From Elusimicrobia bacterium RIFCSPLOWO2_02_FULL_39_32 (GTDB lineage: Bacteria > Elusimicrobiota > Elusimicrobia > 2-02-FULL-39-32): DNA of 64,000 nt. Positions within the stretch are counted from its first letter, which is position 1. Each line of letters opens with the position of its first letter. This document shows positions 38,367 to 64,000 of this stretch, one piece after another. The position numbers and the translations under genes are program-made. The stretch lies in contig MGUU01000002.1 in NCBI GenBank assembly GCA_001800135.1, positions 2,388 through 66,387 of the forward strand, in the 5' to 3' direction. The notes below the pieces were generated by a model, which saw only the letters and a list, made by a program, of their open reading frames with translations, ran no database searches and was not told where the DNA came from.

Positions 38367-38416
38367 AAGATGGGAAATTAGTGACTGCCCCCCATTTCCT
38401 AAGGAGGAATTCGTTT

Positions 38417-42036: not shown

Positions 42037-43059
42037 TTGTCTGAGCTAAGACAAAACTTATGCAGCAAAGAATGGGTGGTGATCGCTCCCAAAAGGAGAG
42101 AAAAGCCTAATGCTCTAAAAACAAAAATAAAGTCAGTCCCTCTTTCCACTGAATCTTATAGTTCAAAGTGCCCATTTTGTCCAAATAATGAGAAACTGTT
42201 CCCATTAGAGGAAAAGATGAGGATTCAGAATTCGAACGGGGAGTGGGTGACGAGAGTCATAGAAAATAAATATAAAATTCTGGACTCCTATGATTCTTGT
42301 CCAACTGTCACACAGCCTTTTGATAAAGAAGGAATCTACCAGAAATTAAAAGGGTGCGGCAGCCACGAACTTGTGATAGATTCTAACCGTCATGACAAAA
42401 ATATTTTGAACATGTCTCCTATAGAGATACGAAATATTCTTGAAGCTGCATTACAAAGGGCAGTTGCGCTTAAAAAAAATCCAAATAACCTCATCACCCT
42501 CATCTTTAAAAATTACGGAGCGATGTCTGGACAAACCCAACTTCATTCTCATACCCAAATTGTAGGAAGTAGGGTTGTGCCTTCCTATATTCGAACGCTC
42601 CTCCATGAAGCAGAAAAACATTTTGATTCATTTGGCAGCTGTGTTTTTTGCGATATGATTGTCTATGAAATAGGCGAGGGGGTACGCTTAATTACTCAAA
42701 ACGAAAATTATGTTTCTTTTGTCCCTTTTGCCGCTGGTACAGAACATGAAACTTGGATCTTACCTAAATTTCATGCTGCTGGCTTAGAAGAGATCGTAGA
42801 AAAAAAATTGGAGGATCTTGCGAAAATTCTACAATCTATCTTTCAACGATTTCATCAGAAGATCGAAAACCCAGATTTTAATTTTGTCATCCGATCTGCG
42901 CCTTATCCTTTATCTAACGTTCCCTACTACCATTGGCACATCCAACTCCTTCCCCGCACAAAAATCATAGGCGGATTTGAGGTTGGAACAAGAATCCAAG
43001 TGAACACGATCCTCCCGGAAGATTCAGCCAAGCTGTTGCGGGAATGCTCTCATTTCTAG
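42037..43059 (+). CDS. GalT-like HIT-family nucleotidyltransferase/phosphorylase
   Basis: CPFCPNNE zinc motif. HSHTQ in place of HPHGQ. Confidence 0.65.
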   Translation: MSELRQNLCSKEWVVIAPKRREKPNALKTKIKSVPLSTESYSSKCPFCPNNEKLFPLEEKMRIQNSNGEWVTRVIENKYKILDSYDSCPTVTQPFDKEGIYQKLKGCGSHELVIDSNRHDKNILNMSPIEIRNILEAALQRAVALKKNPNNLITLIFKNYGAMSGQTQLHSHTQIVGSRVVPSYIRTLLHEAEKHFDSFGSCVFCDMIVYEIGEGVRLITQNENYVSFVPFAAGTEHETWILPKFHAAGLEEIVEKKLEDLAKILQSIFQRFHQKIENPDFNFVIRSAPYPLSNVPYYHWHIQLLPRTKIIGGFEVGTRIQVNTILPEDSAKLLRECSHF

Positions 43060-43617: not shown

Positions 43618-43740
43618 ATGAAACAGATCATGATAGTTCTGGGATTGCTAACCTTAGTAAGCGGAGGGATTTGGGCATATTCCACTTTAGGTAATGTTTG
43701 CTGCGGCAACCCTTCAGCGCTGTGCTGCCCTTTAAAATAA
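43618..43740 (+). CDS. Unannotated 40-aa single-TM peptide with a CC-x6-CC tail (MKQIMIVLGLLTLVSGGIWAYSTLGNVCCGNPSALCCPLK)
   Basis: AGGAGG RBS 9 nt upstream. Located between merR and merTP. Below the 60-aa cutoff of the ORF track. Confidence 0.55.
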   Translation: MKQIMIVLGLLTLVSGGIWAYSTLGNVCCGNPSALCCPLK

Positions 43741-43754
43741 GGAAGTTTTCTAAA

Positions 43755-44336
43755 ATGAAAAAAATATTTCTTGCAGCGGGAGCAGTTGTATCCTCAGCTC
43801 TGGCGTCGGTCTGTTGTCTAGGACCTATCGTTCTTTTAGGCTTAGGAGTGGGGGGTGTTGGTTTTGCGGCTGTGTTAGCAAAATATCGTCCTCTCTTTTT
43901 AGGTTTGACTTCAATTCTTTTAGGGATTGCATTCTATCTAACCTATAGAAAAAGAGAAGTTGCTTGCGAAGATGGCAGCTGTGAACTTCAATCAGGAAGT
44001 AAACCTATGAAGAGGGCTTTATGGATTGTTACAGTTGCAGCGCTTGGATTCGCTACGTTCCCCAACTGGTCCACTTTTGCTTTGAAAAGAGCTCCTCCGG
44101 TTGAGCAATCAAATATGGAAACTATTCGATTATCCATTGCCGGCATGAGCTGTACCGCCTGCGCTGTGAGCATACAGAAGTCCCTCAAGAAAGTGCCGGG
44201 CGTGGAGATTGCATCCGTAGATTTCGAAAAGTCCGAAGCTGTGGTTCAAATTCACCCGGGAAAAATCGAAAATGATGCGTTGATTCGAGCTGTTCAAACA
44301 GCCGGCAGCTATACAGCAAAAATAAAAGAGAATTAA
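43755..44336 (+). CDS. merT: MerT-MerP fusion: mercuric-ion transport membrane protein fused to an HMA metallochaperone domain
   Basis: ALASVCCLGPIVLLGLG and KYRPLFLG match MerT TM1/TM2. A second Cys pair (CEDGSC) is present. The C-terminal HMA domain carries GMSCTAC. Confidence 0.85.
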   Translation: MKKIFLAAGAVVSSALASVCCLGPIVLLGLGVGGVGFAAVLAKYRPLFLGLTSILLGIAFYLTYRKREVACEDGSCELQSGSKPMKRALWIVTVAALGFATFPNWSTFALKRAPPVEQSNMETIRLSIAGMSCTACAVSIQKSLKKVPGVEIASVDFEKSEAVVQIHPGKIENDALIRAVQTAGSYTAKIKEN

Positions 44337-44347
44337 GGAGAAACTCT

Positions 44348-44815
44348 ATGTCTCAACCCATTCAGTCTCATGAAGAATGCTGCAAGATATCAACCACTTT
44401 ATGCCCCTGCCCAGTCTGCGGGAATATGGGAAGGAGAGTGACGCCTCGAACTCTAGACAACCATGTGCCAAGCCCTTTGAGAGAATCAATAGGAGATGAT
44501 GCCACTTTCTGTACGAATCCTGACTGCAAAGTTGTTTATTGCAATCCCAAAAAGATGGTGGTTCTAAGGGGCGAAACCAAATTCCCTGTAACCATTAAGG
44601 ACTCTGGAGATGATGTGTACGTCTGCTACTGTTTCCAACATAAACGCAGAGATCTGCGGCGGGATCTTAAAGAAAAAGGAACCACAGATATTCCAGATAG
44701 AATCCGAAAGTGCGTTAAAGAGGGTATGTGCGATTGCGAACGTAAAAATCCACAGGGAGCCTGCTGTTTAGGAAACATGACTAACGCCATTAAAAGCATC
44801 CAAGAGGGACGTTAG
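44348..44815 (+). CDS. Cysteine-rich (14 Cys) putative metal-binding protein
   Basis: CC, CPCPVC, CTNPDC, CYC, CDC and ACC motifs. No recognised family. Confidence 0.55.
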   Translation: MSQPIQSHEECCKISTTLCPCPVCGNMGRRVTPRTLDNHVPSPLRESIGDDATFCTNPDCKVVYCNPKKMVVLRGETKFPVTIKDSGDDVYVCYCFQHKRRDLRRDLKEKGTTDIPDRIRKCVKEGMCDCERKNPQGACCLGNMTNAIKSIQEGR

Positions 44816-44823
44816 TTATTTAA

Positions 44824-47199
44824 GTGCAATTTTTAATAATTAAAAATCGTTTTATTTTCATAGGAGCTGTTTTTTTTGTAGGATTGTTCTGGAACTTATC
44901 TTCCAACAATCATGGAAATGGTAAAGACAATCCTGTGAAAACCAATACAGCAAACCTCCTCATTCACGAAAAAAGTCCATACCTTTTACAGCATGCCTAT
45001 AACCCAGTGAATTGGTATCCTTGGGGAGAGGACGCGTTTAAAAAAGCAAGAAAAGAAAACAAACCTATTTTTCTCTCTATTGGCTATGCAACTTGCCACT
45101 GGTGTCATGTGATGGAAAAAGAATCTTTTTCAAATCCAGAGATCGCAGCTGTGATGAACGAACACTTTGTATCCATCAAGGTGGATCGTGAAGAAAGACC
45201 GGATGTGGACAAGATTTACATGACCGCAGCTCATGCCGCAGGATGGGGAGGCGGCTGGCCTTTATCCATGTGGCTTACTCCAGAATTAAAACCATTCTTT
45301 GGTGGCACCTACTTCCCTCCCAATGAGCGCTGGGGCAATCCAGGATTTAAACAAATCTTGCTCCGACTCTCTGAACTATGGAAGACAAAACAAAAAGATA
45401 TAGCCTTAAATGCTGATCGCATGGAACAAGAATTAAAACAATATTCTCAGGTAGAGGGTAGATTTGGCGCGCTTGATACAGAATCTTTGGATAAAGGATT
45501 TGCTGCCTTTAAAGGAGACTTTGTGCCCTCTAAAGGTGGGTTTGGTGGAGCGCCGAAGTTTCCCATGCCAGTTAACCAAAACTTTCTATTGCGTACCTAT
45601 GCAAGAAGCAAGGAGAAAAAAGCGTTAGAAATGATCACGCATACGCTGCATGAAATTTCAAAAGGAGGGATCTACGACCAGATCGGTGGAGGTTTTCATC
45701 GCTATTCCACTGATGAAAACTGGCATATTCCCCACTTTGAAAAGATGCTTTATGACAATGCGCAACTGACAATGAACTATCTTGAAGCCTATCAAATCAC
45801 CAAAGAAAAAGAATTTGCCAGAATTGCCCGGGAAACTTTAGATTATATCTTGCGTGACATGACTCATAGAGAGGGAGGGTTTTATTCCGCAGAAGATGCG
45901 GATAGCCTGCCGACCGAGTTTCAGCGACAGGAGGCGTCGCAGACGCACTCAGCGAAGCAGTCCCCTTTGGGGGCTCGTCCTTTAGGAGGAAGTGCCGTCT
46001 CCAAAGATGTTATAGGCAAGCGGCCGACCGAGTTGAAAGGTAAAATTGAAGATACTAGCCATGAACATGGTTCCGAAGGCGCTTTCTATATCTGGGAAAA
46101 AAGAGAGATTATGGAAATTTTAGGAAAGGAATCTGGTGAAATCTTCAGCTACCGATATGGCGTAGAAGAGAATGGTAACGCCAAGTCCGATCCACAGGGT
46201 GAATTCATAAATAAAAACATTCTTTACCTTGCTCATTCTATTGGAGAAACAGCTAAAAAATTTGGAAAAAAAGAAGAGGAAATCCAAAAAGTTTTAGATG
46301 AATCTAGAGATAAACTTTTGTCCGTGCGTTCTAAACGTCCTAGACCACAACTGGATGATAAAATTCTAGTGGATTGGAACGGACTAATGATTTCAGCTTT
46401 TGCTAAAGCAGCTCAAGTGTTGGCTGACCCAGAATATCTAAAAGCTGCAGAGAAAGCCGCGCTTTTTCTAAAAAACCATCTCTATGATGATAAAGACAAT
46501 CGTCTTTATCATCGCTGGAGGGAAGGAGATAGAAATATTCCTGCTTTATCCTTAGATTATGCGCTTTTAACCCAAGGAGTTATTGATCTCTACGAAACAT
46601 CCCTAAATGTAGAATGGCTCATATGGGCAATTGAACTAACAGAAACAGAAATCAAACTTTTTTATGACAAAGAAAAAGGTGGATTCTTTATGACCAGTCC
46701 TGATCATGATAAGAACCTCCTTGTGCGAGCCATGGATGATACAGACAATGTTATTCCTTCAGAAAGTTCTGTGACTGCTCTTAATCTTTTGCGCTTGTCG
46801 CAATTTACTAGTCAAGAGGAGTATCGAAAAGCAGCAGAAAAAACCCTTATGCGATTTGGAGCCCAGATGAAACAACAACCCAGATCTCTCCCACAAATGT
46901 TAGTGGCCCTAGATTATGCGCTATCTAAACCAAAAGAAATTATTATAGCAGGCGATCCAAAATCAGCTGATACAATTAAAATGGTGCAGGAGGTTCATCG
47001 TCGATTTATTCCCAACAAGATCCTCATGGTTATAGATGAAGGAAAAAATCGTGAATCCCTAACTCATTTTTTACCATTTCTGGAAGGGATTAGACGTATT
47101 AAGGGGAAGTCCACAGCCTATGTCTGCATCAATTACGCCTGTGAGCTGCCAACCAATGATCTTCAAATATTGCAAAAAATATTGGATGAAAATCGCTAA
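44824..47199 (+). CDS. Thioredoxin-domain (DUF255) protein with a C-terminal six-hairpin glycosidase-like domain (YyaL/SSP411-like)
   Basis: [20 protein letters not shown] motif. Contains a low-complexity insertion. Confidence 0.8.
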
Positions 47200-47201
47200 A
47201 A

Positions 47202-47471
47202 TTATGCCGCTCGAAGATCGCTTTTAGCCTCATATAAATCTATTGCATTTTGCAGGTTCATCCAAAATTCAGGGGTTGTTTTAAGTATTTTAGACAAAAG
47301 AATCGCAGTTTCTGCAGTAACGCCTCTCTTTCCATTAATGAGGGTATTAATCCGCTGAATTGGAATATTCATTCGCCTTGCTAACTCAAGCTGGCTCATT
47401 CCCATGGGTTTAAGGAACTCAATTAAAAGTATTTCACCGGGATGAGTGGGTCTTCTCTGTTTTGGAATCAT
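47202..47471 (-). CDS. higA: HigA-family antitoxin (XRE HTH)
   Basis: HTH_XRE. Position downstream of higB. Confidence 0.8.
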   Translation of the reverse strand: MIPKQRRPTHPGEILLIEFLKPMGMSQLELARRMNIPIQRINTLINGKRGVTAETAILLSKILKTTPEFWMNLQNAIDLYEAKSDLRAA

Positions 47472-47481
47472 GTCAATTCTC

Positions 47482-47775
47482 CTAATCGTGATAATCTAAA
47501 ATTCTAACACCGTCGATATTGTTGTTCATCCATTTAAAGACAATTCGATATTGATCGTTGATTCGAATGCTATAGAATCCTTTCATGTTTCCCTTGAGGA
47601 GTTCGAGTCTGTTTCCCGGAGGAGCAAGCAAATCCTGTAAGGCATGCGCTGTATTAATCATATCAAGTTTTCTTGTAGCAACTTTCCAAAGCTGCAAAGG
47701 AATCCTTCTTGCCTCTTTAGAGTTGATTCCATGGTAGATATCTTCAGTTGTCTTGTCTCCAAAGCTCGTAATCAC
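47482..47775 (-). CDS. higB: HigB-family toxin (RelE/ParE superfamily)
   Basis: 97 aa plasmid-maintenance killer-like protein. Toxin-first order. Confidence 0.75.
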   Translation of the reverse strand: MITSFGDKTTEDIYHGINSKEARRIPLQLWKVATRKLDMINTAHALQDLLAPPGNRLELLKGNMKGFYSIRINDQYRIVFKWMNNNIDGVRILDYHD

Positions 47776-47846: not shown

Positions 47847-50800
47847 TTAGGCTTGCTGCTTATAGAGCTGGGATATTTTTTGTTCTTCATCCTTAGAAGG
47901 CGGTTCCAGTGGAACTCCTTGGATGGTCAGACGATCTCCTATAATTTCCACTCCTCGTTCCCCCTTTAAGCCCTCTGCCCAGTCTCTTAACCCTGAATTC
48001 CTTGCCCCCATCTCTATTAAGCTTAAGCTCACTTCTTCACTAATATCTAGAACTTGCGGAATCAAAATCTTGATATTCCATTCTTGAGCCTCTTTTCCTA
48101 AAAGGTTTGTCCATACCATTGAACTCTTCTCTGTGGTAACAATCCTTAAGGAGAAAGATTCGATCATGGCTATTCTCTTTAACTCAATCACCGCTTCTTC
48201 CGCGCTTTCTAAAATAGCTATTCTCCCCCTTATGCCCAATGCTTTTTCTATCTCTCCAATGGCTGCGCCATTCTTATTCACAAAAAGATACTGAACTTTC
48301 TTAAATGGATGCTTCTTTTTCTCTTCTTCAATCTGCTGAATGGTTCTTAATTGCAGTAAACGATCGTTCTCAGTCTTTGCGCTCTTAAAATCTATCAGAC
48401 AAATCTCTATCTGATTCACCTCTGCGCTCCAAAATTGAAAAACTTTATCTAGCGCAGAGGAATAAGAGAATTCGGTTTGCAATAGAAGTTCCTTAATCTT
48501 ATCTGTTGAATCCCCCAAAGCTTGGGCTACTTGTACAATTCCTTGAAGGTTAGGATTGATTCCCCTTTCAATTCCAGCAAAAGTTTTTGAAACATTCGTA
48601 AGGTAATGAACGATTACGGAAGCAGCTAAGAGTAGAGGAAATGAAATCCAGAAGGGAACAGGAATAATTAGTTGGATAATACCTAAAAGCAAGTTGATGC
48701 GAGCGATCTTTTTTGCAGATTCAAGAAATTGTGGTGGAGCACGGGAATCAAAACGATTAGCGATCCATTCTTTGTGACCTTCCACAAATACGCGCACACT
48801 AGAAAAGAAAGAGACTTGCAGCGCTACTTGAAAATTGCTCCCTGTCAAAATATAAGTTAAAAGCCCGATAGACAACGCACTCAAGCCAAAAGAGATCACA
48901 TCCTCTAACAACGCCCACTTCCGATTGTACTCCTCTAGGGTAAGATCAGGGAAGAAATGTTTTCTAAGCAACTTATATAACCATAACCAGTTGCCGCCAC
49001 CAGAAAAGTCATCAGCGTGATTAGAAGGAAATTCTCCTAATATTTGTTGTATTCTGACCGACTCTACAAGGAATGCGGCATGTGGATAGCTATTTTTAAT
49101 TTCGTCGCATATTTTTGAATAAAGATCATTTTGAGGGGTGTAAATATCAACAGAACTTACTCGCTGAGTCATCACTACATTATTGATCACATCAGCAAAA
49201 AATCTGGCTAGAATTCTCATCTCCCAAGATAAAAGGCGGGATGGAACATTAAATGAAAAAGTGTGAGTATTATCATTAGCGTGAATCAATATTGTTATTT
49301 TTTCATTTTGATCTGGAATCGCTGACTCTGTCAACCTTCTTCCCACATCCACTATGTTTCCAGACTTTTCTACAACGCTAATTGGAAGCGGGCTTCGCCT
49401 GCCATATTTTATCGCCTCATCAATCTCATGAATTTTGGTTTCTAAATCATTGAGACCATCTGGTCCCAATGTTCTAAACGACCACACGCCCAAATTTTCT
49501 GCTGGCTCAACATCTTTTAAATAATCATTCCCAACATAAACAATTTGACTGGGACTCACTCCAAGCGCTGCCAAGACCCTTTCATAAAAAATTGGTTCTG
49601 GTTTAGAGGCTTTTACCCGATCTCTGGTAATAAGAAGCGACGGATCAAAACATTCCTCAATGCCAATGATTTGCAATATTCTTTTAACCACCTCTTTGCC
49701 ACTATTAGTTGCTATCGCTAAAGTATAACCCTGTTGTTTAAGATGGTCTAAGAACTCTTTTAGCTTTGGATTAGGCTTTATCAAATCGAACGGCATATGC
49801 TTCAGTTCTCCTATTTCTTTTCCTCCCCAACTGATGCTGAATTCAAGGGATAATTGGTTGCTGCTTACCGCGCCTTTGTTTGAAAGCTCATCACTTTTAT
49901 TTTGGATTACCTCTCTGGCTGTTTCGATTGAGACATTATTTCTTTCAGCATAGGTTCGTACAAGCGCTTCCCTATACATAGCCTCGAACTCTGGAGCATG
50001 GTAAAGAGTTCCATCCAAATCAAATAAAATCAATTTAATTTTTTCATTGCTGCTGGAATGTGTGTCGGTTCTATCCTGAACTTGACCTTGCGCTTTAGTT
50101 TTTGACTCTTTTAGGAGGGCACGAACAGGAGGATGATTGGAGATACCATCAGCAAGGCTTGCTAGGATTGTGCCGCCGGCAGTGGTACGCTGAATAGCAG
50201 GGTTTAACTCGCGGCCACCCCAATCCTTTTCACGAACCTCATTCACAGCCTTGAGCATATCACCACCAACCAGAAAGACTGGAACTCCGGCTCCCCTTGC
50301 TTTCTCTAGTTTTTCTAAAAGTTGCCGTGTGGCTGTACGCCCGTCATTCCGTTCAAAAACTCCAGTACCGCCATTGGCGATAATCCAGCCATCGCCATTA
50401 TTTTTATGGCGCTCTATGATCTTATCAATCTCTACAAGTATTACATCCAGTGTCTTAGAACCAATGTCTATCGCTTTTTGCTCAATACCAATCCGATCGA
50501 CAAGTTCTGCTGTGTCCTCGTCCCGCACAATGACTCTATGATCTATAGGTAACAATAACTTCATATCGTTCTCTTGCGCTCTCTCTCTAATTTTGGAAAT
50601 AGCTTTTTCAACCTTGAGCGCCGCTTCCCCCTTTGGCAGCCTTGACTTACCTATGGACTGATCTGCCTGTTTAAGGAAAGGATATGCTAAGGCTCCTACA
50701 ACGACCATGATATCCCCAGCATGTTGTTGCCCACTCGACACATATTTGAGCAAATGTTTGTATATCTTATCTGGTTTAGTTCCTCCCCAAATAATAAGTC

Positions 50801-53800
50801 CTGCACCACGAGCTTCCGCTTCAAACTCAAGCTTTTTGTTGACTTCTTTAACAAATGAAATTCCAGCTGCCCGTGCCTCTACAGGAAAATGGTTTACCAT
50901 TCGCACTGTTGCATCCGTGTTGTGACTTTCTATCGCCTCATTAATATAAGCTGCAGGATGACCTAATGCGTTAAGAAGTCGTTCAATAAATTTGTCCTGA
51001 TCTTCAGGAATCGGCTGTGAACCAGAATAATAACTGCTCTCCTCTGGATAGAAACGGCTGTTGGGTAACATAAAGACAATCTTTTTATTTTGATATACCT
51101 TACGCGCAGATTCAATGGCAGCGGGAATTGCGTCAATATCTTCTGGAAGCATAACGATTCCAGCGTCAATGCCTATTTCCATCATACGCTTTTCGGCTAT
51201 TGGAAGCACTCTTCTTTCAACATCAAACTTCTCTCGCGTAACGGAATCATCAAGCTCTTCTTTACTGGGTCGTCCAAGATGGGTACAGATAAAAAGTTCG
51301 TCAAATTTTTCTAAGGCACTTTTAACGGTTTCCACAGTCTGCACGATCTTTGTATCCCCATCTCCCGGATCCTCTCCAATATCCCAGTTAATCTTGAGAA
51401 ATGCAGATATCCCATCAGGTAAATCCTCTATGGTTCGTATTGCCCCGGACTGATCAGATGATGTAAGAAAAATCTTTTCTGATTCTGGAGCTGGAGACGG
51501 TTCGTATGCGTCACCTCCGCCACTGCTTGTGCCAGATATTTGATGAGGACCATGATCCTTTGGTAAATTCTTGTCTAACCCCCGACTCTTTATTTCATTC
51601 TGATAATTCATCCGCCCTAAAGTGAGCGCCATGGAAATCTTAAGATTGACATCTTTTGTTTCATTCAGCCATTCAATAAGCATATCCTTATTGAATAAAT
51701 AATTCCCGCGTTCCGTTTGTATAACTTCAAATTCATCCCACGCGGGCACAATATTTCGTACTTCTAAAACTTGATCTTCACGATCCTTGAATAATTTTTC
51801 AGATTCATGGATGATGGACTCTTCAATGGATTCACCCTTAGTCTTAGCCAAAAATTCTGGACCCCACTTAGGTTTTACAAGTTCCTTAGCGGAAATTTTT
51901 CCGGTTTCCGCTAGATTTAAATTGTTATCTGCGGCATTAGCAGTGCTATTTTCTTGAAACCGCCTCATGAGATACTTGAGCGCCTTCTCGATTCCTCCCT
52001 TGATGACAAAAGGCACATAAGAATAGACGCGGGGAAGAGCCTTATCTTCTCCCCAAAAAAATCTAAAAATTTCCTGAAGAGCTCGTTTCAAATTTTCCGT
52101 CATTCCAAACAAGGATTGAAATTCCAAATGTTGTGGATCCACATCCAATTTCTTTGCCCACAATAGAGCGCTTACAATAGTTCTCGCATCATGACTGGCG
52201 ATCCCGATTCTTTGGATGAGTTTATGTTTTCTAAATAATAGTCGCACTATTTCCAAATAGTTTTCGTCGGTTTTCCAATTTCCCATCCAAACAGGAATTG
52301 GATCACCACGCTCTTCTGCATCGCGAACCTCCTGCGAATGATAAGCTCCCTTAACAGGACGGATGGCGATAGGCATTGGATCCTCAGGATCCTTTTCCAT
52401 CCAGTTTATGAGCCCCTCAACTTCAGCCAATGAATCTACAAAATAGGCTTGTACCACCATCCCGACGTCCGGAATACGCCTGCCGTTTTCTCGCACCATC
52501 TTCAAATTTGGATCTAACTGATTTTCAAGCTCTTCCAGAACAGTCTGGATTACTTCATTAGCAACATCACGATAAATGTACTCTTCTTTATCAACCCAGA
52601 CAATTGCTCCCATCTGTCCTGCTCTTTTAACTTCACGCACTTTTGCCACTATCTTTTTGTAATTCTGAACAGCCAAATTGAATCCTTCTCTTCTCACAGA
52701 TTCAACTTCACTATCCAGCCAACTTTGCGGTGTAAGATTAGTTACCTTTGAGGAAATATTAGGTTCTAGACCATAGGACGCCATTTTTTCAATAAGATCC
52801 ACACAAGCTTGAGCATTTTCCATAGCTTCTTGTTCCGTATGAATTCCTTCACCCAAAATGTCTGCTATAGATAAAACAGGTCTGGACTCGGACTTCCCAT
52901 CTCTTACAACCCGTATCCCTTTAGCCGCCATTTCTCGTATAACTTTTTCTACCGCCTTTTCTTGTGAGAGATTTTTCATGGATTTAAGTGCTTCATCCTC
53001 AGTGTCTCCCACAATATACTGCGCTGTCATAAAAAACAATAACTTGCGCAGCCATTCCTTAAAAATTTCCGGTGTCCTATCAGACTGGATGATTTTATCA
53101 GCCAAATCTACACTCCCAGTTAAGAGTTTTGCAAACCAAGGGGTGGGGTACATTTTTAAAATGAACTTTGTGATTCCGTTTCTTAAGAGCTCTAGTACAT
53201 TTAAGTTCCGTTCTCTTTCTTGTCGGATTAATTTGGATGCTTCCACGAGTCTTTCTGTCTCACGAACGATTTCAGACTCCGGTATTCCCCATCCGCTATT
53301 ATCCTCTTCTATCTCGTCTCCATTTTGGAAATGCGTTTGGGGTTTACTAGGTTGAAAACGGGGACGTTTCACATTTCCCTCTAAATTAGAAACGTCCTTG
53401 TTTTTCCTTAATATGTCACTCAAGTCTGTTGGGCCCAGAGCAAAAAATAGATTGGCGAGGATCGCCGCAACTGCTGTAGGTATGGTTAGCCAGTGAAATC
53501 CAGCCACTGCAAAGATGGCCACAGCCGCAACTAAATTTGCATAAATGCCTGAACTTCCATGAGCTCCCGGAACTGTTAAGCGAAAACCCAAAACCTTTTG
53601 CAAACCCGGCGGCCAATCATCAAAAGCAATCACGCCTTTTGTGTCAAACTTGGGCCAACTCCATTCTTTAAATGGTTTTTTCCAGTTGACCTCAATCATG
53701 TGGCCAACCTCATTGATAACAATGGCAAGAAAAACAGCGGAAATTGCGCTGCCCCAAAGAGAATTAGCGTCAACTACAATGCCGAAAAATCCTGCTAAAA

Positions 53801-55196
53801 CGATCGCGGATAGATAAGTAACGACTGGAACAACAAATGGAAGAGCAATTAGATCGCTCGCATTTTCCAAATGAGCTTTGTCCGGATCATATTCGCCGAT
53901 CACTCTCATATTGACCCGTGTGGGATCTACTAAGATTTCTGATAATTTATCATGGGATCCTTTAGAGTAAAGATATTCTTTTACAATTCCTCTAATCCCC
54001 CATTTCTCTATATCAAGCGATTTAAAAGTTTCATTAAACGATATGAGTTCGAACAAATGCTGGATTGGATCCCAAGCTAACCAAGTAACCGGGGCGGGAG
54101 GATTACTTTTTTCATCGAACCATTGCCGACGAAAATGCTCTACAACCCTTTCCCTCCCAATTTTCAATACTTCTTTTAGCGATCCATAAAAGGTTCTTTC
54201 TAATATTTGCCCTGGCACAAGAGGGTGTCTCCTACTCCCAAAATGGTAAGCCACAACTCTTTCCCCACGATACAAGCGATTAAGCAATTCCTCTTCTGAT
54301 TTAATCTCTTCCATTCTAATTAATGGAGCGCTGGCAAGTGATTCCTGGGGTATGGATTTAAGAGATAGTTCGACTTCATAAAGATACGCCGCTTTAAATG
54401 CCCGCGGATAAAAAAATATAGAACGTGCCCGTGAGAGAGGAGTTCTCACATTAGGTGAAAGTTCTGGAGACATGTTAGAATTAAGTGAGGTGTCTCCAAT
54501 CTTTCTACCGCCTGACTTGCCATCTTTCTTTCTTCCAGACATTGCGGATAAATGTGGACTTAAAACATTATCTTTTTTCTGTCTAAAGATGTTGGCTAAT
54601 GAGGAGGTTTTGGATCGGCTCTTCCTATTCATGGTCATTGCAACATAGAACTTACGCGCTTTTTTAACGCGTCGGTTCATGAGATTAGATAAATCAATGT
54701 TAACAGGTATAAGAGACGGGGTTTTCAAAAAAATCTGTCTCAAAAGTTCTAAGCTGTCTTCCCAATCTTGAGAGATCTTCTCTTCAACTTTGTAATAGCA
54801 TTGTACCGCGTAATCTAAAACTGTTTCAAAAATCTTCACTGATTTTTCACGGATCAGATCAAATTCCTCTTTTGCATTATTCAGAATAGAGTTAGAAAAT
54901 CCCATATTTCGGTCTAATGGCTGGAGATTAGAATTTTGAGGAATATATTTGTTAAGCACTACTTGCTGTTCCGTCGGTGATTTTACAGAAAGAGGTCTTC
55001 CCCGAAATTGAAAACTCTCGGCTTTGGAGGAAGAAGTTTGTTTGGCTTGGGCAAAGGGCGGGAGGATAATAGAAATCAACAAAGCGCCGACAACGACGAG
55101 CGCGGTGCTCTGTTTAAAAAACCTGATGATTTTTTTATTCCAAAAGTTGTGCATATCACGAACGCGCATTACGCGTATATAAAAATAATTATACAA
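47847..55196 (-). CDS. Giant (2449 aa) multidomain protein. Domain order: signal peptide, Ser/Lys-rich low complexity, TM bundle, proline-dehydrogenase-like TIM barrel, phosphoglycerate-kinase-like domain, HAD phosphatase, TM segments, C-terminal domain.
   Basis: Uninterrupted ORF. Signal peptide MHNFWNKKIIRFFKQSTALVVVGALLISIILPPFAQA, so the probable start is the internal ATG near 55154. PRODH signatures: RPVKGAY and YVPFVIKGGIEKALKYLMRRFQEN. PGK-like motifs: ICTHLGRPSKEE, NSRFYPEE, IANGGTGVFER, GGDMLKAV. HAD motif I: LILFDLDGTLY, followed by the YVGND motif. Confidence 0.8.
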   Translation of the reverse strand: MYNYFYIRVMRVRDMHNFWNKKIIRFFKQSTALVVVGALLISIILPPFAQAKQTSSSKAESFQFRGRPLSVKSPTEQQVVLNKYIPQNSNLQPLDRNMGFSNSILNNAKEEFDLIREKSVKIFETVLDYAVQCYYKVEEKISQDWEDSLELLRQIFLKTPSLIPVNIDLSNLMNRRVKKARKFYVAMTMNRKSRSKTSSLANIFRQKKDNVLSPHLSAMSGRKKDGKSGGRKIGDTSLNSNMSPELSPNVRTPLSRARSIFFYPRAFKAAYLYEVELSLKSIPQESLASAPLIRMEEIKSEEELLNRLYRGERVVAYHFGSRRHPLVPGQILERTFYGSLKEVLKIGRERVVEHFRRQWFDEKSNPPAPVTWLAWDPIQHLFELISFNETFKSLDIEKWGIRGIVKEYLYSKGSHDKLSEILVDPTRVNMRVIGEYDPDKAHLENASDLIALPFVVPVVTYLSAIVLAGFFGIVVDANSLWGSAISAVFLAIVINEVGHMIEVNWKKPFKEWSWPKFDTKGVIAFDDWPPGLQKVLGFRLTVPGAHGSSGIYANLVAAVAIFAVAGFHWLTIPTAVAAILANLFFALGPTDLSDILRKNKDVSNLEGNVKRPRFQPSKPQTHFQNGDEIEEDNSGWGIPESEIVRETERLVEASKLIRQERERNLNVLELLRNGITKFILKMYPTPWFAKLLTGSVDLADKIIQSDRTPEIFKEWLRKLLFFMTAQYIVGDTEDEALKSMKNLSQEKAVEKVIREMAAKGIRVVRDGKSESRPVLSIADILGEGIHTEQEAMENAQACVDLIEKMASYGLEPNISSKVTNLTPQSWLDSEVESVRREGFNLAVQNYKKIVAKVREVKRAGQMGAIVWVDKEEYIYRDVANEVIQTVLEELENQLDPNLKMVRENGRRIPDVGMVVQAYFVDSLAEVEGLINWMEKDPEDPMPIAIRPVKGAYHSQEVRDAEERGDPIPVWMGNWKTDENYLEIVRLLFRKHKLIQRIGIASHDARTIVSALLWAKKLDVDPQHLEFQSLFGMTENLKRALQEIFRFFWGEDKALPRVYSYVPFVIKGGIEKALKYLMRRFQENSTANAADNNLNLAETGKISAKELVKPKWGPEFLAKTKGESIEESIIHESEKLFKDREDQVLEVRNIVPAWDEFEVIQTERGNYLFNKDMLIEWLNETKDVNLKISMALTLGRMNYQNEIKSRGLDKNLPKDHGPHQISGTSSGGGDAYEPSPAPESEKIFLTSSDQSGAIRTIEDLPDGISAFLKINWDIGEDPGDGDTKIVQTVETVKSALEKFDELFICTHLGRPSKEELDDSVTREKFDVERRVLPIAEKRMMEIGIDAGIVMLPEDIDAIPAAIESARKVYQNKKIVFMLPNSRFYPEESSYYSGSQPIPEDQDKFIERLLNALGHPAAYINEAIESHNTDATVRMVNHFPVEARAAGISFVKEVNKKLEFEAEARGAGLIIWGGTKPDKIYKHLLKYVSSGQQHAGDIMVVVGALAYPFLKQADQSIGKSRLPKGEAALKVEKAISKIRERAQENDMKLLLPIDHRVIVRDEDTAELVDRIGIEQKAIDIGSKTLDVILVEIDKIIERHKNNGDGWIIANGGTGVFERNDGRTATRQLLEKLEKARGAGVPVFLVGGDMLKAVNEVREKDWGGRELNPAIQRTTAGGTILASLADGISNHPPVRALLKESKTKAQGQVQDRTDTHSSSNEKIKLILFDLDGTLYHAPEFEAMYREALVRTYAERNNVSIETAREVIQNKSDELSNKGAVSSNQLSLEFSISWGGKEIGELKHMPFDLIKPNPKLKEFLDHLKQQGYTLAIATNSGKEVVKRILQIIGIEECFDPSLLITRDRVKASKPEPIFYERVLAALGVSPSQIVYVGNDYLKDVEPAENLGVWSFRTLGPDGLNDLETKIHEIDEAIKYGRRSPLPISVVEKSGNIVDVGRRLTESAIPDQNEKITILIHANDNTHTFSFNVPSRLLSWEMRILARFFADVINNVVMTQRVSSVDIYTPQNDLYSKICDEIKNSYPHAAFLVESVRIQQILGEFPSNHADDFSGGGNWLWLYKLLRKHFFPDLTLEEYNRKWALLEDVISFGLSALSIGLLTYILTGSNFQVALQVSFFSSVRVFVEGHKEWIANRFDSRAPPQFLESAKKIARINLLLGIIQLIIPVPFWISFPLLLAASVIVHYLTNVSKTFAGIERGINPNLQGIVQVAQALGDSTDKIKELLLQTEFSYSSALDKVFQFWSAEVNQIEICLIDFKSAKTENDRLLQLRTIQQIEEEKKKHPFKKVQYLFVNKNGAAIGEIEKALGIRGRIAILESAEEAVIELKRIAMIESFSLRIVTTEKSSMVWTNLLGKEAQEWNIKILIPQVLDISEEVSLSLIEMGARNSGLRDWAEGLKGERGVEIIGDRLTIQGVPLEPPSKDEEQKISQLYKQQA

Positions 55197-57817: not shown

Positions 57818-59041
57818 TTAAAAATAAATTAATGTTTCATTCGGATGATCCAGAGAAAGAAAGAGCAGCATGTATTCCCTTAGATGGCGGGTAAGAAGAA
57901 AGTTATTCCGCACCTGTTCCCTTCCGTTATCCCCAAGTTTTTTTGCGTACTCTGGATTTTGCAGAAGCTGTTTTAGCCAGTGAGCGGTCCCTTCAATAGA
58001 GTGCGTCAGAATGCCAGAATATTTGTGGGTAATTTGTAAGGGAATGCCTCCTACAGAGCTGGCTATAACTGGTTTCCCTTTCCAAAGCGCTTCCGAGACT
58101 GTAAGTCCAAAACCTTCTTTGAGCGATTTCTGTAAAATAACTGTGGATGCTCGTTGTAACGCGTTGATCTCAATATGACTAGTAGGAGGCAAACAAAGAA
58201 TATGAATGTCGGGATCTTCTCCTGCTTTTTGACGCACCTCCGCCAGCACTTTAACTCCCTCAGGATCATCATCCGCTGAACCGCCTGCTAGCACAAGCTG
58301 ACAATTCACATATTGTTTTACAAGTTTGTATGCCTCAATCACTCCTACAGGGTCTTTAAGATAATCAAACCTAGAAATTTGTGTGACAATGGGACGCTCC
58401 GCGTCAATTTTAAAACGAGAAAGAACCTCATCTATTGTTTGTCGCGGCAATTCCTTATTTTTATCGCTTAAAGGATCAATAGAAGGCGGGATCAACATCT
58501 GCCGATGGAGAAGTCCCTGAGTGAACGAGGGGGCGGAAAAAACCGAGGCATCATATTGTTCAATCATCGGCTTTAAAAAATTCCAAAGATTTTCGTCTCT
58601 TTGCGAAAGATCAATGTGGCATCTCCAAATCCAGCGGTTTTTATATTTGTTTCTTTCAAGCACCAAAGCAGCGGGTTGAGGGTCGTGGATAAAGAGGATG
58701 TCCGCATCCAACGATAAACTTAAGACATTATCCCGAACCGTATCCAAATACAATTCAAAATCTTCTTTACTCAACTGTTCTTTTTTCCCATGCAAGGCAT
58801 TATGAAACTTTTTAGTAATGATAAAAAACTTCTCCCCGCCTTTAATGCATTCCCACCGAACATTCACACCCATATCTTTTAAAAGCGGAACCATCCGGTT
58901 TAAAATCTCAGCCACTCCTCCTCCTATGGAGGTTGAATTAATATTGACAATGGATTTGCCTCTTAATTTTTCTGAGATCAATCTCAATTCCGATATTTCA
59001 TTTTCCCCTACGATGGAAATATAATCATCCAGATTAAACAC
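57818..59041 (-). CDS. treT: Trehalose glycosyltransferring synthase (TreT, GT4)
   Basis: Strong match to archaeal TreT. Motifs VNSTSIGGGVAEIL, HDPQPAAL, WRCHIDLS, PPSIDPLS and EGFGLTVSEALWKGKPVIAS. Confidence 0.8.
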   Translation of the reverse strand: MFNLDDYISIVGENEISELRLISEKLRGKSIVNINSTSIGGGVAEILNRMVPLLKDMGVNVRWECIKGGEKFFIITKKFHNALHGKKEQLSKEDFELYLDTVRDNVLSLSLDADILFIHDPQPAALVLERNKYKNRWIWRCHIDLSQRDENLWNFLKPMIEQYDASVFSAPSFTQGLLHRQMLIPPSIDPLSDKNKELPRQTIDEVLSRFKIDAERPIVTQISRFDYLKDPVGVIEAYKLVKQYVNCQLVLAGGSADDDPEGVKVLAEVRQKAGEDPDIHILCLPPTSHIEINALQRASTVILQKSLKEGFGLTVSEALWKGKPVIASSVGGIPLQITHKYSGILTHSIEGTAHWLKQLLQNPEYAKKLGDNGREQVRNNFLLTRHLREYMLLFLSLDHPNETLIYF

Positions 59042-59708
59042 GCATCATCTCCTGTATTCTTCTTTCAACAAGATGAATCACTTGCTGTCTTAATCCTTCC
59101 AAAGTGTGCGTGTAGGGGTCCATTTTAGCAACATCTTTGGCGAGCTTAGTTTCTCCCAAAGCAGTTTCAAACCAATTGGAAAAATCATTGATCCCAAGAG
59201 GCGGACGAATTCTCGCTTCAAAAATATGGTGATAAAGAGAATTGATGCTTACTTTTTTTAGCGCTTTGGCAAATTCACTTAAATTCCACGCCTCATAAGG
59301 CGTTGGCAACACAAAGCTGATAGATTGCTTAAAGTAAAATTCATCTCCTTCAGGCGCATCATGGTAATTGTTATATGAAATAAGATGGTTCTCAATCGTT
59401 TGAATGATTTTCTCTCTAATGTCTCGAATAGTCGGAAAACGGATGGTGTCTATCGCAAATAGCTTTTCCGCCAATTTTTCATCCTGCAAGGCAGTGTCCA
59501 CCCAATAGGCAAAATCGTTGGGGGGCTCAGGCGATAAGAACTGATGCTGTTTTAGAAATCGGTGGGTGTGATGATAAATTACCGAACCTGGGACTTCCTT
59601 TAGACAGCTGAGAAGTTCATGGATATTTTTTGCTTTCCAATGAGTAATTTGAGTAATGCTAATTTGGGTTACAAATCTAAATGGCGCGCTTGCCATTTTA
59701 AGTTCCAT
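59034..59708 (-). CDS. Hypothetical protein (tandem ~90-aa repeats) between treT and otsB
   Basis: Overlaps treT by 8 nt. Internal duplication (FAYWVDTALQDEKLAEKLFAIDT / FSNWFETALGETKLAKDVAKMDP). Confidence 0.45.
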   Translation of the reverse strand: MELKMASAPFRFVTQISITQITHWKAKNIHELLSCLKEVPGSVIYHHTHRFLKQHQFLSPEPPNDFAYWVDTALQDEKLAEKLFAIDTIRFPTIRDIREKIIQTIENHLISYNNYHDAPEGDEFYFKQSISFVLPTPYEAWNLSEFAKALKKVSINSLYHHIFEARIRPPLGINDFSNWFETALGETKLAKDVAKMDPYTHTLEGLRQQVIHLVERRIQEMMRV

Positions 59709-59709
59709 T

Positions 59710-60546
59710 TTAACTCCCTATCTGGAATTGTTGCTTACCTGTATTTGCCAATGTAACTAAAAATTTTTCAACCTCAGGAACATTTTTTAAAAAATATTGA
59801 GCAGCAGAGCTTTTCTTTCGACCCACTCGAATGGAGACTCCTTTAGAAGCAAGCGCCTTAAACGCCGATTCATCAGTAACGTCGTCCCCAATAAAGATTG
59901 GGAAGGTTTCTTTAGGATGCCGAGCTAAAATCCATTTTACTGCCTTTCCTTTGTCCCAAAGGATGGGAGGGAGCACTTCCCATCCTTTTTTTATCTCTAA
60001 AACGTGAATCTTTTGACCCTTAACCCAAGGATCAATTCGCTCAAAAAATTCTGTCTTAATTCTTGAATACAAACTCGGATTTGTCAACCTGTAATGATAA
60101 GCAAGTGAAATTTTTTTATCTTCAAGAAAGGAGCCAGGGAATTTTTCTTGGAGAGGTTTAAGCTCTTGTTTCATCTCTTTAATTCTGTATTTAAATCCCT
60201 CAGCGAGATTGTACCGATCCTTTAATTTCGGACTCCATAACTGAAGACCATGGTTTCCCCCAATGATTACTTTTTTCAAGCCTAGCAAACGCTTTATCTG
60301 TTGTACAGATCTTCCCGTAATAATCCCAATGGTAAATCGTGAATTTTTTGTCAACGCTTTTAAAACAGTTTGGGTGGAACTCTTTAACCGCGCCTCTTGC
60401 GGTGTGGACACAATTGGAGATAAAGTTCCATCATAGTCCAGTAAAAGCAAAATATGGGAAGAGCATTGAATCTTCTCGACAATTTTTTTTTGAAGAGAAG
60501 CGCTAAAATAGCGCATTTTTAGCTTAACTCTATAAACCAAAAACAA
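59710..60546 (-). CDS. otsB: Trehalose-6-phosphate phosphatase (HAD-IIB)
   Basis: LLLLDYDGTLSP motif I. GDDVTDE. Confidence 0.85.
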   Translation of the reverse strand: MFLVYRVKLKMRYFSASLQKKIVEKIQCSSHILLLLDYDGTLSPIVSTPQEARLKSSTQTVLKALTKNSRFTIGIITGRSVQQIKRLLGLKKVIIGGNHGLQLWSPKLKDRYNLAEGFKYRIKEMKQELKPLQEKFPGSFLEDKKISLAYHYRLTNPSLYSRIKTEFFERIDPWVKGQKIHVLEIKKGWEVLPPILWDKGKAVKWILARHPKETFPIFIGDDVTDESAFKALASKGVSIRVGRKKSSAAQYFLKNVPEVEKFLVTLANTGKQQFQIGS

Positions 60547-60557
60547 TGAAAATAGAG

Positions 60558-62861: not shown

Positions 62862-63234
62862 TTTTTGGGAGAACTTTGATCCTTCTCTTTATTTTTTCTG
62901 CCGCTAATGGCAACGTATAGGACAAACCAGAGGAAGACTCCAATCAGAACAAAAACTGGCCATTCTTGAGAAAAATTAAAATGCATTCTTTTATTCCTCC
63001 AATGAAGCCCTTTTATTTTTCTACAAAAAATAAAAAAGCCGCTCACCTTAAGGCAACTCAAAACCTTAAAGTGATGGCGGCCCGACCATCTTATTGTTTA
63101 ACCTCCAAGAACTTGAACTTAAATTCTTGGACCCTTTTCCTAACCTAATTTATAGCATGGTTTCTCTAGAATTACAACCCTATTCTTTCTCTTTGATGTC
63201 GCATTGGATTCTGATGAAGTGAGGAAAACTCCCT

Positions 63235-63573
63235 CTAGCTTTTGTTAGCGCGGTACATGACAACATTCACGCTTTCCAACGTAATAAGGCCTTCTTGCAC
63301 CATTGAATCTAAGGAGGGTAAAAAACGGTTTATTTTTTCTTCGCTATCTACAATTTCTATGATGATAGGTAAATCTTCTGACAAACGCAGTAACTTAGCT
63401 GTATGCATGTGGCTTTTGCAGCCAAATCCCATGAAACCTTTAATCGCAGTGGCTCCGGCCATCCCTTCTTTTTTTGCTAAATGAATAAGCGCTTCATAAA
63501 GAGGCTGACTTTGCCACACGTCTCTTTCCCCTATAAATATTCTTAAAAGTTTTCCATTCGATGGTATTTTCAT
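63235..63573 (-). CDS. DUF190 (PII-like) protein, of the type typically associated with crcB/fluoride response
   Basis: LLRIFIGERDVWQSQPLYEALI...GATAIKGFMGFG. Confidence 0.75.
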   Translation of the reverse strand: MKIPSNGKLLRIFIGERDVWQSQPLYEALIHLAKKEGMAGATAIKGFMGFGCKSHMHTAKLLRLSEDLPIIIEIVDSEEKINRFLPSLDSMVQEGLITLESVNVVMYRANKS

Positions 63574-63600
63574 TCCTTATTTACCTCCATAAAGGTTCTA

Positions 63601-63670
63601 CCCGAAACTTGCATTAGAAAATGAGAACTGAGACGGAAAAGATAGCCAATTTCTAATGCCAACATTCGGG
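63601..63670. repeat. MITE-like palindromic element, copy D (minimal 70-bp form). It is flanked by 5-bp direct repeats TTCTA at 63596-63600 and 63671-63675.
   Basis: Termini CCCGAAACTTGCATTAGAAAATG ... TTTCTAATGCCAACATTCGGG. Core GAGAACTGAGACGGAAAAGATAG. The right-hand repeat overlaps the crcB stop codon. Confidence 0.7.
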
Positions 63671-63672
63671 TT

Positions 63673-64000
63673 CTATACTAATTCAGCCGCAATTTGTCCA
63701 AGATAAAATAAAAATAGCCCGAACACAAAACTTCCCATCCCATTTAGAATCGCTTTCAATAATTCCCCATCTTTAAGGAGATTAACAGTTTCTAAAATAA
63801 GAGTAGAAAATGTGGTGAAGGCGCCGCAAAATCCAACCATGAGTAAAATTCTTGCATTTGGGTTCAATAAAAATTTTACTTCAGCCAAAGCATTCAAAAA
63901 ACCAATCAGAAAACATCCGGATAAATTTACCGCTAATGTGCCATAAGGAAAATTGCTGCCAAAAAATTTGTAAACTAATCCCGCTAGCACATAACGGGAA
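63673..64000 (-). CDS. crcB: Fluoride ion channel CrcB/Fluc. The 5' end may lie beyond the window, since the in-window start is a GTG at 63990.
   Basis: GTLAVNLSGCFLIGFL and FCGAFTTFSTL motifs. Confidence 0.8.
   Translation of the reverse strand, partial: SRYVLAGLVYKFFGSNFPYGTLAVNLSGCFLIGFLNALAEVKFLLNPNARILLMVGFCGAFTTFSTLILETVNLLKDGELLKAILNGMGSFVFGLFLFYLGQIAAELV

Follow-up and report, generated by a model that had tools for sequence, protein, structure and literature searches.

Evaluating a 64,000-nucleotide stretch of contig MGUU01000002.1 from Elusimicrobia bacterium RIFCSPLOWO2_02_FULL_39_32 (hereafter the window), we found a gene for a giant protein that is a small relative of the mosaic giants of Omnitrophota, here in a different phylum, and not a categorically new kind of protein. 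Behind a Sec-type leader the chain carries a cluster of hydrophobic transmembrane (TM) helices, a proline dehydrogenase (PRODH) module, a domain with the phosphoglycerate kinase (PGK) fold, a HAD phosphatase domain, a second TM cluster and a C-terminal domain, and every segment of it is under purifying selection. We cautiously favour, by a modest degree of belief, a reading in which the enzymes are tethered to the cytoplasmic side of the membrane and act independently of one another. The finding extends the concatenation of ordinary enzymes in leader-bearing membrane proteins beyond Omnitrophota to groundwater Elusimicrobiota, and down to lengths of 2.4-4.1 kaa (thousand amino acids).

Reading frame and catalytic domains

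The initial annotation, made from the letters alone, had described a single 2449-aa open reading frame (ORF) with PRODH-, PGK- and HAD-type domains, and this was borne out by the ORF list and by Pfam: the gene occupies one uninterrupted frame of 2449 codons on the reverse strand (47847..55196), a stop-free stretch that far exceeds chance, in which Pfam recovered Pro_dh (E 6e-45), PGK (1e-33) and HAD (1e-23). The layout it had given, running from leader through a TM cluster and the PRODH, PGK-like and HAD domains to more TM helices and an uncharacterised C-terminus, also stands, as do the motifs it had quoted (AQA|KQ at aa 49-53, RPVKGAY at 946, YLMRRFQEN at 1075, LGRPSKEE at 1307, NGGTGVFE at 1608, GGD at 1644, DLDGT at 1726 and YVGND at 1887). 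Its length needs trimming: the 2449-codon ORF exists, but a start at the TTG at 55196 is distrusted because this codon overlaps a -10-like box (TGTATAAT), database gene calls open at ATG M10 (55169) or ATG M15 (55154), and one of these two is probably the true start of a protein of ~2435-2440 aa. The predicted mass of the full-length product is ~270 kDa, and a scan for promoters and terminators returned counts that match shuffled expectation.

Depositions and assemblies show that the gene is real, and it looks expressed. Exactly the same 2449-aa sequence is deposited as OGR80366.1 (named 'phosphoglycerate kinase', from Elusimicrobia bacterium RIFCSPHIGHO2_02_FULL_39_36), and the same protein from M15 as OGR93660.1/OGS00481.1 (RIFCSPLOWO2_02_FULL_39_32), on 10 contigs of which the longest measures 216 kb; NCBI taxonomy places the host among unclassified Elusimicrobiota. 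A 90%-identical ortholog from a sister species (MBI2118492.1, 4,131 aa, 'proline dehydrogenase family protein') occurs in a different groundwater Elusimicrobia metagenome-assembled genome (MAG), on a contig of 659 kb, and in two Logan assemblies. A codon alignment of the two, divided into 11 segments that take in the linkers, the TM clusters and the unannotated domains, gave dN/dS of 0.13-0.28 for every segment (dS 0.16-0.50), and selection therefore maintains the entire reading frame. An artefact, whether a decaying pseudogene or the assembly chimera that the initial annotation had named as one way for its reading to fail, might be suspected from the ortholog being ~1,700 aa longer, such that either form might be mis-assembled, and from the gene being called as fragments in some ENA assemblies; this explanation is effectively refuted by an identical 2,435-2,449 aa product in NCBI, JGI, ENA and Logan data (more than 10 contigs overall, from independent assemblies), by the long form standing in three independent assemblies, and by a frame with no internal stops and dN/dS far below 1 throughout.

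For the PRODH module, the Pfam family cut-off was passed (Pro_dh, PF01619; 154.4 bits versus 27, aa 769-1086), while the NCBIfam PutA models, whose alignment spans aa 688-1108, gave 75 bits against an unreached cut-off of 747. Its best solved relatives in a sequence search of the PDB were PutA proteins (5ur2, 4e-24; 4nm9/7na0, 1e-17). Aligned to these structures, the module has all of the proline and FAD contacts, which in E. coli PutA are K329, D370, Q404, R431, Y437, L513, Y540, Y552, R555, R556 and E559. In the giant protein these fall in the beta1 lysine K817, D869, QAY 916-918, R946-x-x-K949-G-A-Y952, Q1027/L1029, Y1058-x-Y1060-VPF and Y1075-LM-R1078-R1079-FQ-E1082, and the sole motif change is ASHD replacing (A/T)(S/T)HN. 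No aldehyde-dehydrogenase (P5C dehydrogenase, where P5C is pyrroline-5-carboxylate) domain was found on the chain by Pfam (no Aldedh match at E<=1); with the PutA-type residues present, this is therefore a PRODH of the PutA type that lacks the second activity of PutA, and we propose that it is a catalytically competent FAD enzyme. It resembles PutA and monofunctional PRODHs (PF01619; Bdellovibrio PutA 5ur2, Geobacter PutA 4nm9) in its (beta-alpha)8 FAD barrel with an N-terminal arm, in its conserved contact motifs and in the membrane association needed for electron transfer. Unlike PutA, it comes without a P5C dehydrogenase or a DNA-binding domain, is covalently held by TM helices where PutA is peripherally bound, and has a 10-residue insertion before the last strand in addition to the ASHD change. 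The linker that follows (aa 1111-1250) is 77% identical to that of the ortholog, with dN/dS 0.27 and indels of 13 and 32 residues.

The PGK-like domain likewise passed its family cut-off (PF00162; 117.1 bits versus 27, aa 1281-1658), and the only PGK model among the NCBIfam matches listed, PGK/TIM NF010569, scored 69.6 bits and did not reach its cut-off of 883. With 23 relatives aligned together with yeast PGK (3pgk numbering), the nucleotide and phosphoryl-transfer residues K213, K217, N334, E341 and D372 are all kept in the window protein, as are the 3-phosphoglycerate contacts H62, R65 and R121, whereas four other 3-phosphoglycerate contacts are altered (D23N, N25D, R38K, and R168 absent with H/T instead). 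The whole aligned clade keeps K213, K217, N334, E341/D and D372, and H62, R65 and R121 nearly without exception. The four alterations are confined to a subclade of the window protein, its ortholog and the fusion protein P0005, with D23, N25 and R168 kept in 18 of the 20 other clade members and R168 in 19 of the 20. Of the catalytic residues, which the initial annotation had asked to be checked for PGK and PRODH, those of PRODH, HAD and the ATP side of the PGK-like domain are kept and the four acceptor contacts are changed. With its nucleotide and phosphoryl-transfer residues retained, the domain has very likely remained a kinase. The remodelling of its acceptor site suggests that it acts on something other than 3-phosphoglycerate, and the domain is probably not a 3-phosphoglycerate kinase.

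The likeness to canonical PGK (PF00162; yeast 3pgk) lies in the two-lobed fold signature, the GGxK, NGGxGxFE and GGD motifs and H62, R65 and R121, and the differences are the four subclade changes just named and the unreached NCBIfam equivalog cut-offs. The bifunctional PGK-TIM protein of Thermotoga (NF010569) is a known case of PGK tolerating fusion to other enzymes. A standalone canonical enolase is also encoded in the window (7968..9269, (+), Pfam 448 bits), so that the organism, in contrast to Omnitrophota hosts of the PGK-fusion clade, has at least one ordinary glycolytic gene that is not fused. It therefore does not depend on a fusion at the enolase step, in keeping with the PGK-like domain as an additional, diverged copy. 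The subclade is a candidate for a new kinase specificity, and the database name 'phosphoglycerate kinase' for the giant protein would mislead metabolic reconstructions.

The HAD-IA domain (HAD/HAD_2 in Pfam, 85 bits, aa 1720-1904) has motifs I-IV (DxDxT, S/T, K, DxxxD) and a Rossmannoid core with a C1 cap, and the named HAD equivalogs of NCBIfam were not reached (best TIGR02253, 99 bits versus 170; PGP, 60 versus 180). Compared with HAD-IA small-molecule phosphatases (TIGR02253 'CTE7', phosphoglycolate phosphatase, PH1655 2hoq, XMP phosphatase 7ef7), it falls below every curated family cut-off, is followed by a conserved 175-residue accessory domain and sits inside a membrane protein; the accessory domain accompanies the HAD module in the fusion protein P0009 too. 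For all three enzymes, NCBIfam agrees with the Pfam domains at superfamily level with no equivalog cut-off reached.

Pfam gave no match for aa 52-448, 1111-1250, 1916-2090 or 2212-2449, and PDB sequence searches with aa 221-445, 1905-2095 and 2205-2449 returned none below E 0.1 (weak receiver-domain matches at E 0.2-0.4 were not used as evidence). An AlphaFold model of aa 2090-2449 was of low confidence (pLDDT 52), and a Foldseek search of this low-confidence model against the PDB found no match at E<=0.001. We considered and rejected a universal C-terminal sorting domain, as hhalign against the C-terminal modules of Omnitrophota fusions and of P0005 gave a probability below 1%.

Relatives and cassette exchange

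Searching aa 715-1914 exhaustively with HMMER against 1.84 billion representatives, we matched 3,599 proteins, and outside the giant protein's own cluster none of them hit more than one of PRODH, PGK and HAD; the trio is therefore unique to this lineage. The initial annotation knew of no described protein with this combination, which needs the qualification that membrane-anchored multi-enzyme giants as such are already described for Omnitrophota. No characterised homolog of the giant protein was found among database records, which carry automatic names only ('phosphoglycerate kinase', 'proline dehydrogenase family protein'). Each of the three modules has its nearest relatives inside other mosaic proteins that carry a leader, every time beside unrelated partners (Table 1). 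The PGK-like domain falls in a distinct clade of fusion proteins that score 100-518 bits; canonical PGKs reach only ~49 bits, compared with 100-185 bits for the fusion clade. Its best 20 matches are nearly all 1,200-2,800 aa long with a Sec-like leader.

A profile search of genome contigs with the PGK-clade alignment returned the ortholog and 11 loci, all 11 in Candidatus Omnitrophota MAGs. Genome contigs searched with the whole giant protein as query gave no relatives; a word-index search with the C-terminal 410 aa gave 8,000 candidates of which none scored, known relatives being likewise unscored; and a metagenome scan with the C-terminal alignment found only the contig of the protein P0003 and a fragment of the window gene.

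The ortholog (L005 1214..13609) is the window protein plus two in-frame blocks totalling ~1,740 extra residues, one at ~aa 185-1458 (~1,270 aa) and one at ~aa 1490-1962 (~470 aa), the second of which contains enoyl-CoA hydratase domains (ECH_1/ECH_2 in Pfam). In the window the two forms differ at ~54500..54606, and a 30-residue island, SSLANIFRQKKDNVLSPHLSAMSGRKKDGKS, is kept between the blocks. Two further proteins share the ends of the chain to different extents: P0003 (2,564 aa, with only a weak APH-like match) matches the window protein just in the leader region (47% identity), the C-terminal domain (75% identity) and TM cluster 2, a module that it carries twice. In P0004 (2,610 aa), whose cargo comprises methyltransferase, SNF2 helicase and helix-turn-helix (HTH) domains, the leader is the sole shared part. 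This sharing pattern, together with the ortholog blocks, therefore points to conserved ends around exchangeable cargo. Two close species that differ by clean in-frame cassettes, with leader and C-terminus shared more widely, offer a direct view of mosaic evolution.

Two preprints and one paper describe giant Omnitrophota proteins that are mostly membrane-anchored. Among long proteins of Omnitrophota, the 2026 preprint lists 'multi-enzyme metabolic clusters' as one of three architectures, reports a signal peptide or TM helices in 94% and HAD hydrolases among frequent domains, and sets the length threshold at >=10,000 aa (10.64898/2026.06.07.730766). For 'Archaeovorins' and related proteins, the 2023 preprint discusses association with the membrane and the possibility of autoprocessing and of enzyme domains outside the cell (10.1101/2023.11.21.568195), and the functions of Omnitrophota giant proteins are stressed as unknown by Seymour et al. 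(PMC10066038); the thresholds given across the three sources are 10-30 kaa or ORFs >=20 kb. By keyword look-up in these three sources, we found no PRODH or PGK fusions and no Elusimicrobia carriers, and literature searches for PGK or PRODH fusions within giant proteins returned nothing specific.

The window protein shares with the Omnitrophota multi-enzyme giants its signal peptide and TM helices, the tiling of a single chain with metabolic Pfam domains of unrelated families, HAD frequent among them and modules shared between proteins, a sequence-unique character with shuffled architecture, and Omnitrophota MAG proteins as the nearest relatives of its PGK-like module. It differs in having no repeats, dockerins or scaffolding HEAT arrays by Pfam, and hhalign shows no relation between its C-terminal module and the corresponding modules of the Omnitrophota fusions.

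We also observed that four Omnitrophota proteins (P0007, P0012, P0010, P0011) have lower-glycolysis enzymes fused on a single chain behind a Sec-like leader, and such leader-bearing glycolytic fusions are apparently not described where keywords were looked up in the Omnitrophota giant-protein papers. If fusions of the P0007 type were the sole glycolytic copies in those genomes, the leader would not be an export signal, or glycolysis would be oddly placed.

Membrane placement and competing readings

Hydropathy placed hydrophobic segments at the leader (aa 31-49), cluster 1 (aa 449-590) and cluster 2 (aa 2092-2211). The N-terminal region between leader and cluster 1 (aa 52-448) has a net charge of +15 and dN/dS of 0.20-0.25 versus the ortholog, and cluster 1 is 85% identical to its counterpart (dN/dS 0.17). 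Flanking charge is acidic (-4) before cluster 1 and basic (+3) after it, and cluster 2 encloses a basic loop (+3). The leader, including PPFAQA(K/G)Q, is kept in P0166, P0003 and P0004, and no twin-arginine (Tat) motif was found in it. As an observation of its own, the pattern M..FWNKK..RFFKQS-hydrophobic-LPPFAQA|KQ is highly conserved across proteins with wholly different cargo (the window protein, P0166, P0003, P0004), and a looser version, M..FFKK..F.R.I..., opens Omnitrophota fusion proteins; the shared leader may be a lineage-specific targeting signal.

From these features we infer a topology in which the Sec-type leader would insert the protein into the inner membrane, the basic N-terminal ~400 residues would lie outside, and an odd number of passes (three) in cluster 1 would bring the chain back inside. 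The enzyme modules, ~1,500 residues in all, would then be suspended from the membrane on the cytoplasmic side, and the four-helix bundle followed by a cytoplasmic C-terminal alpha/beta domain would end the protein. Cytoplasmic placement is favoured because selection keeps the FAD and ATP sites intact, a twin-arginine motif is missing from the leader, the charge flanks agree and the helices of cluster 2 are even in number; export of a folded flavoprotein would need a twin-arginine signal. In PutA, the PRODH passes its electrons to membrane quinone. Tethering makes sense for this module because its electrons must reach membrane quinone, and with the PRODH within ~170 residues of the membrane, quinone would be the likely electron acceptor here as in PutA. 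The PGK-fold domain, with its remodelled acceptor site, would be an ATP-dependent kinase acting on a substrate other than 3-phosphoglycerate, and the small-molecule HAD-IA phosphatase with its accessory domain would be a third, separate catalyst; we infer these substrates and the independence of the modules. Leader-bearing polypeptides exchange such modules as cassettes, and the giant protein belongs to the phenomenon seen in the Omnitrophota giants.

Several observations weigh against this tethered array of separate enzymes and its kinship to the published giants. Module independence is argued from shuffling, while both species with the PRODH/PGK/HAD trio conserve it, and the HAD domain in P0005, the only other member of the altered-PGK subclade, makes a functional coupling of kinase and phosphatase possible. 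A 50-residue loop within cluster 1 is mildly basic and misfits the favoured topology, and a cleaved signal peptide with four passes in cluster 1 would put the enzyme array in the periplasm. As to kinship, the published class comprises proteins of >=10,000 aa (10-147 kaa) from Omnitrophota, compared with 2,435-2,449 aa for the window protein and 4,131 aa for its ortholog in a host filed as Elusimicrobiota, such that the window protein, four times shorter, falls outside the class in both length and host.

That last topological possibility, an exported array or effector in which the leader is cleaved and even passes in cluster 1 leave the catalytic domains periplasmic, on the surface or delivered to another cell, is one we hold to be unlikely. 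It would account for the classical n-h-c leader with its conserved AQA|K site and for the four hydrophobic segments that can be counted in cluster 1; the related Omnitrophota fusions run from leader directly into enzyme domains with no further TM helix, and an extracellular role, as proposed for some Omnitrophota giants, is discussed in 10.1101/2023.11.21.568195. FAD and ATP domains with cofactor sites intact under selection make little sense outside the cytoplasm, though, and beyond the missing Tat motif no dedicated secretion system was found adjoining the gene, P0004 carries an SNF2 helicase and HTH behind the same leader, which indicates a cytoplasm-facing role, and the free-living-type gene neighbourhood lends no support to prey injection. 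It is improbable, too, that the chain is a polyprotein precursor, cut after insertion into separate enzymes with fusion serving as a mode of co-expression. The inter-module linkers are indeed the least conserved and indel-rich parts (dN/dS 0.27, a 32-residue indel), and autoproteolytic processing is suggested for Omnitrophota giants (10.1101/2023.11.21.568195). Set against this, Pfam detected no peptidase domain anywhere on the chain, the linkers are still under purifying selection, and a TM cluster at either end of the array looks built to keep it on the membrane.

The initial annotation had read the three domains as a self-contained oxidise-phosphorylate-dephosphorylate pathway, which our comparisons do not support. 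We regard it as rather unlikely that the three enzymes work serially at the membrane on a single metabolite, for instance to make or recycle a solute or head group derived from proline or glycerate. Passing from the P5C/glutamate-semialdehyde produced by PRODH to a carboxylate kinase needs a phosphorylating aldehyde dehydrogenase, and Pfam finds none on the chain, leaving no domain to link the PRODH product to an acyl-phosphate. Related proteins combine each of the PRODH, PGK-like and HAD modules with unrelated partners, and the cargo of the ortholog differs, with an enoyl-CoA hydratase and 1,400 further residues inserted. A dedicated pathway would be consistent with purifying selection on the trio in both carrier species, with an acceptor site specifically remodelled in the subclade, with the HAD-like DxDxT segment of P0005, its only other member, and with the presence in the window of sugar and solute genes, among them one for an MGH1-like protein of the mannosylglycerate-hydrolase type. 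The co-occurrence and synteny check proposed at the outset cuts both ways: the trio, and a position within ~10 kb of trehalose genes, recur in both species, but the genes between the giant gene and the trehalose locus differ.

The more specific proposal, that the altered PGK-fold domain is a new ATP-dependent kinase working with the HAD domain, and possibly PRODH, in one unit at the membrane to produce or recycle a phosphorylated proline- or glycerate-type metabolite tied to compatible-solute metabolism, strikes us as quite unlikely. Were kinase, phosphatase and possibly PRODH truly one unit, the fusion would record a real, undescribed pathway, and a kinase and a phosphatase acting on a common new metabolite would sharply raise the significance of the giant protein. 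Its ~270 kDa and three recognisable, apparently active enzymes make it much more tractable as a model than the 10-147 kaa proteins for domain location, chain processing and the benefit of tethering, and it would gain significance as well if used to settle such topology and processing questions for the far larger Omnitrophota proteins.

Feature coordinates and neighbouring genes

Table 1. Segments of the giant gene, adjoining genes in the window, and domain content of related fusion proteins.
Feature	Position	Strand	Content or basis
Whole ORF	47847..55196	-	2449 codons + stop; ORF list, identical database proteins of 2449, 2440 and 2435 aa
Sec-type leader, aa 10-51	55044..55169	-	Basic n-region FWNKKIIRFFK, hydrophobic core, PPFAQA|KQ; sequence and hydropathy
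N-terminal region, aa 52-448	53853..55043	-	Lineage-shared module to ~aa 170, Ser/Lys/Arg-rich linker ~175-260, unannotated domain 234-445
TM cluster 1, aa 449-590	53427..53852	-	3-4 hydrophobic helices; hydropathy
PRODH module, aa 640-1110	51867..53279	-	PutA-like N-terminal arm + FAD (beta-alpha)8 barrel; Pfam core aa 769-1086
Linker, aa 1111-1250	51447..51866	-	Partly low-complexity, least conserved segment; comparison with ortholog
PGK-fold kinase domain, aa 1251-1700	50097..51446	-	Pfam 1e-33; yeast PGK 3e-12
HAD-IA phosphatase domain, aa 1717-1910	49467..50048	-	Motifs D1726/D1728, T1830, K1865, D1891/D1895
Post-HAD alpha/beta domain, aa 1916-2090	48927..49451	-	43% identity to the P0009 region beside the HAD of P0009
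TM cluster 2, aa 2092-2211	48564..48923	-	Four predicted helices; hydropathy and AlphaFold model
C-terminal domain, aa 2212-2449	47850..48563	-	Rossmann-like beta-alpha core in model; 75% identity to P0003
HigB toxin + HTH antitoxin	47202..47775	-	Directly 3' of giant gene
TreT, DUF5752, trehalose phosphatase (TPP)	57818..60546	-	5' of giant gene
OtsA-like gene	60558..62861	-	NCBIfam
P0007 (2,026 aa, MCX7927234.1, Ca. Omnitrophota MAG)	L007 9806..15886		PGK+GAPDH+TIM+enolase (Pfam; GAPDH_C)
P0012			PGK+TIM (Pfam)
P0005			CofD+PGK (Pfam); also HAD-like DxDxT segment
P0025			Glucosamine_iso+PRODH+HD (Pfam)
P0047			NUDIX+PRODH+sigma70_r4/HTH (Pfam)
P0065			HAD+HD+RelA_SpoT (Pfam)
P0139			HAD+PMI+ROK (Pfam)
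P0009			HAD+ROK+ribulose-phosphate epimerase (Ribul_P_3_epim) (Pfam)

The neighbours named in the initial annotation, a trehalose locus and a HigBA module, were recovered as TreT, DUF5752, TPP and an OtsA-like gene on one side and as HigB with an HTH protein on the other. RecQ and an EngB-type GTPase lie on the other strand between the giant gene and the trehalose genes. The ortholog loci lack the HigB/HTH pair; there the gene call that follows (L001) is an oppositely oriented ORF of 61 aa, and the pair beside the window gene is probably a recent insertion. In the ortholog locus (L001 4031..4752), CrcB and DUF190 are the genes immediately upstream of the giant one; in the window they lie beyond the trehalose genes (63221..64000). 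The insertion of RecQ/EngB and the displacement of CrcB/DUF190 amount to local rearrangement around a conserved neighbourhood.

Elsewhere the window is rich in genes for sugars and compatible solutes (33142..36941, 4773..6197 and 42037..43059, all (+), and 57818..62861, (-)), comprising an MGH1-like (mannosylglycerate-hydrolase-type) protein of 898 aa and glucose-dehydrogenase-like, phosphoglucomutase, GalT-like, TreT, DUF5752, TPP and OtsA-like genes. A metal and redox cluster (38363..39955 and 43698..47199, (+)) holds a MerA-like FAD oxidoreductase, a MerT-HMA fusion, a CopZ zinc-finger protein and a 791-aa DsbH/thioredoxin (DUF255) protein, and an 838-aa fusion of radical SAM/SPASM with an ArsM-type arsenite methyltransferase is encoded at 30450..32966 (+).

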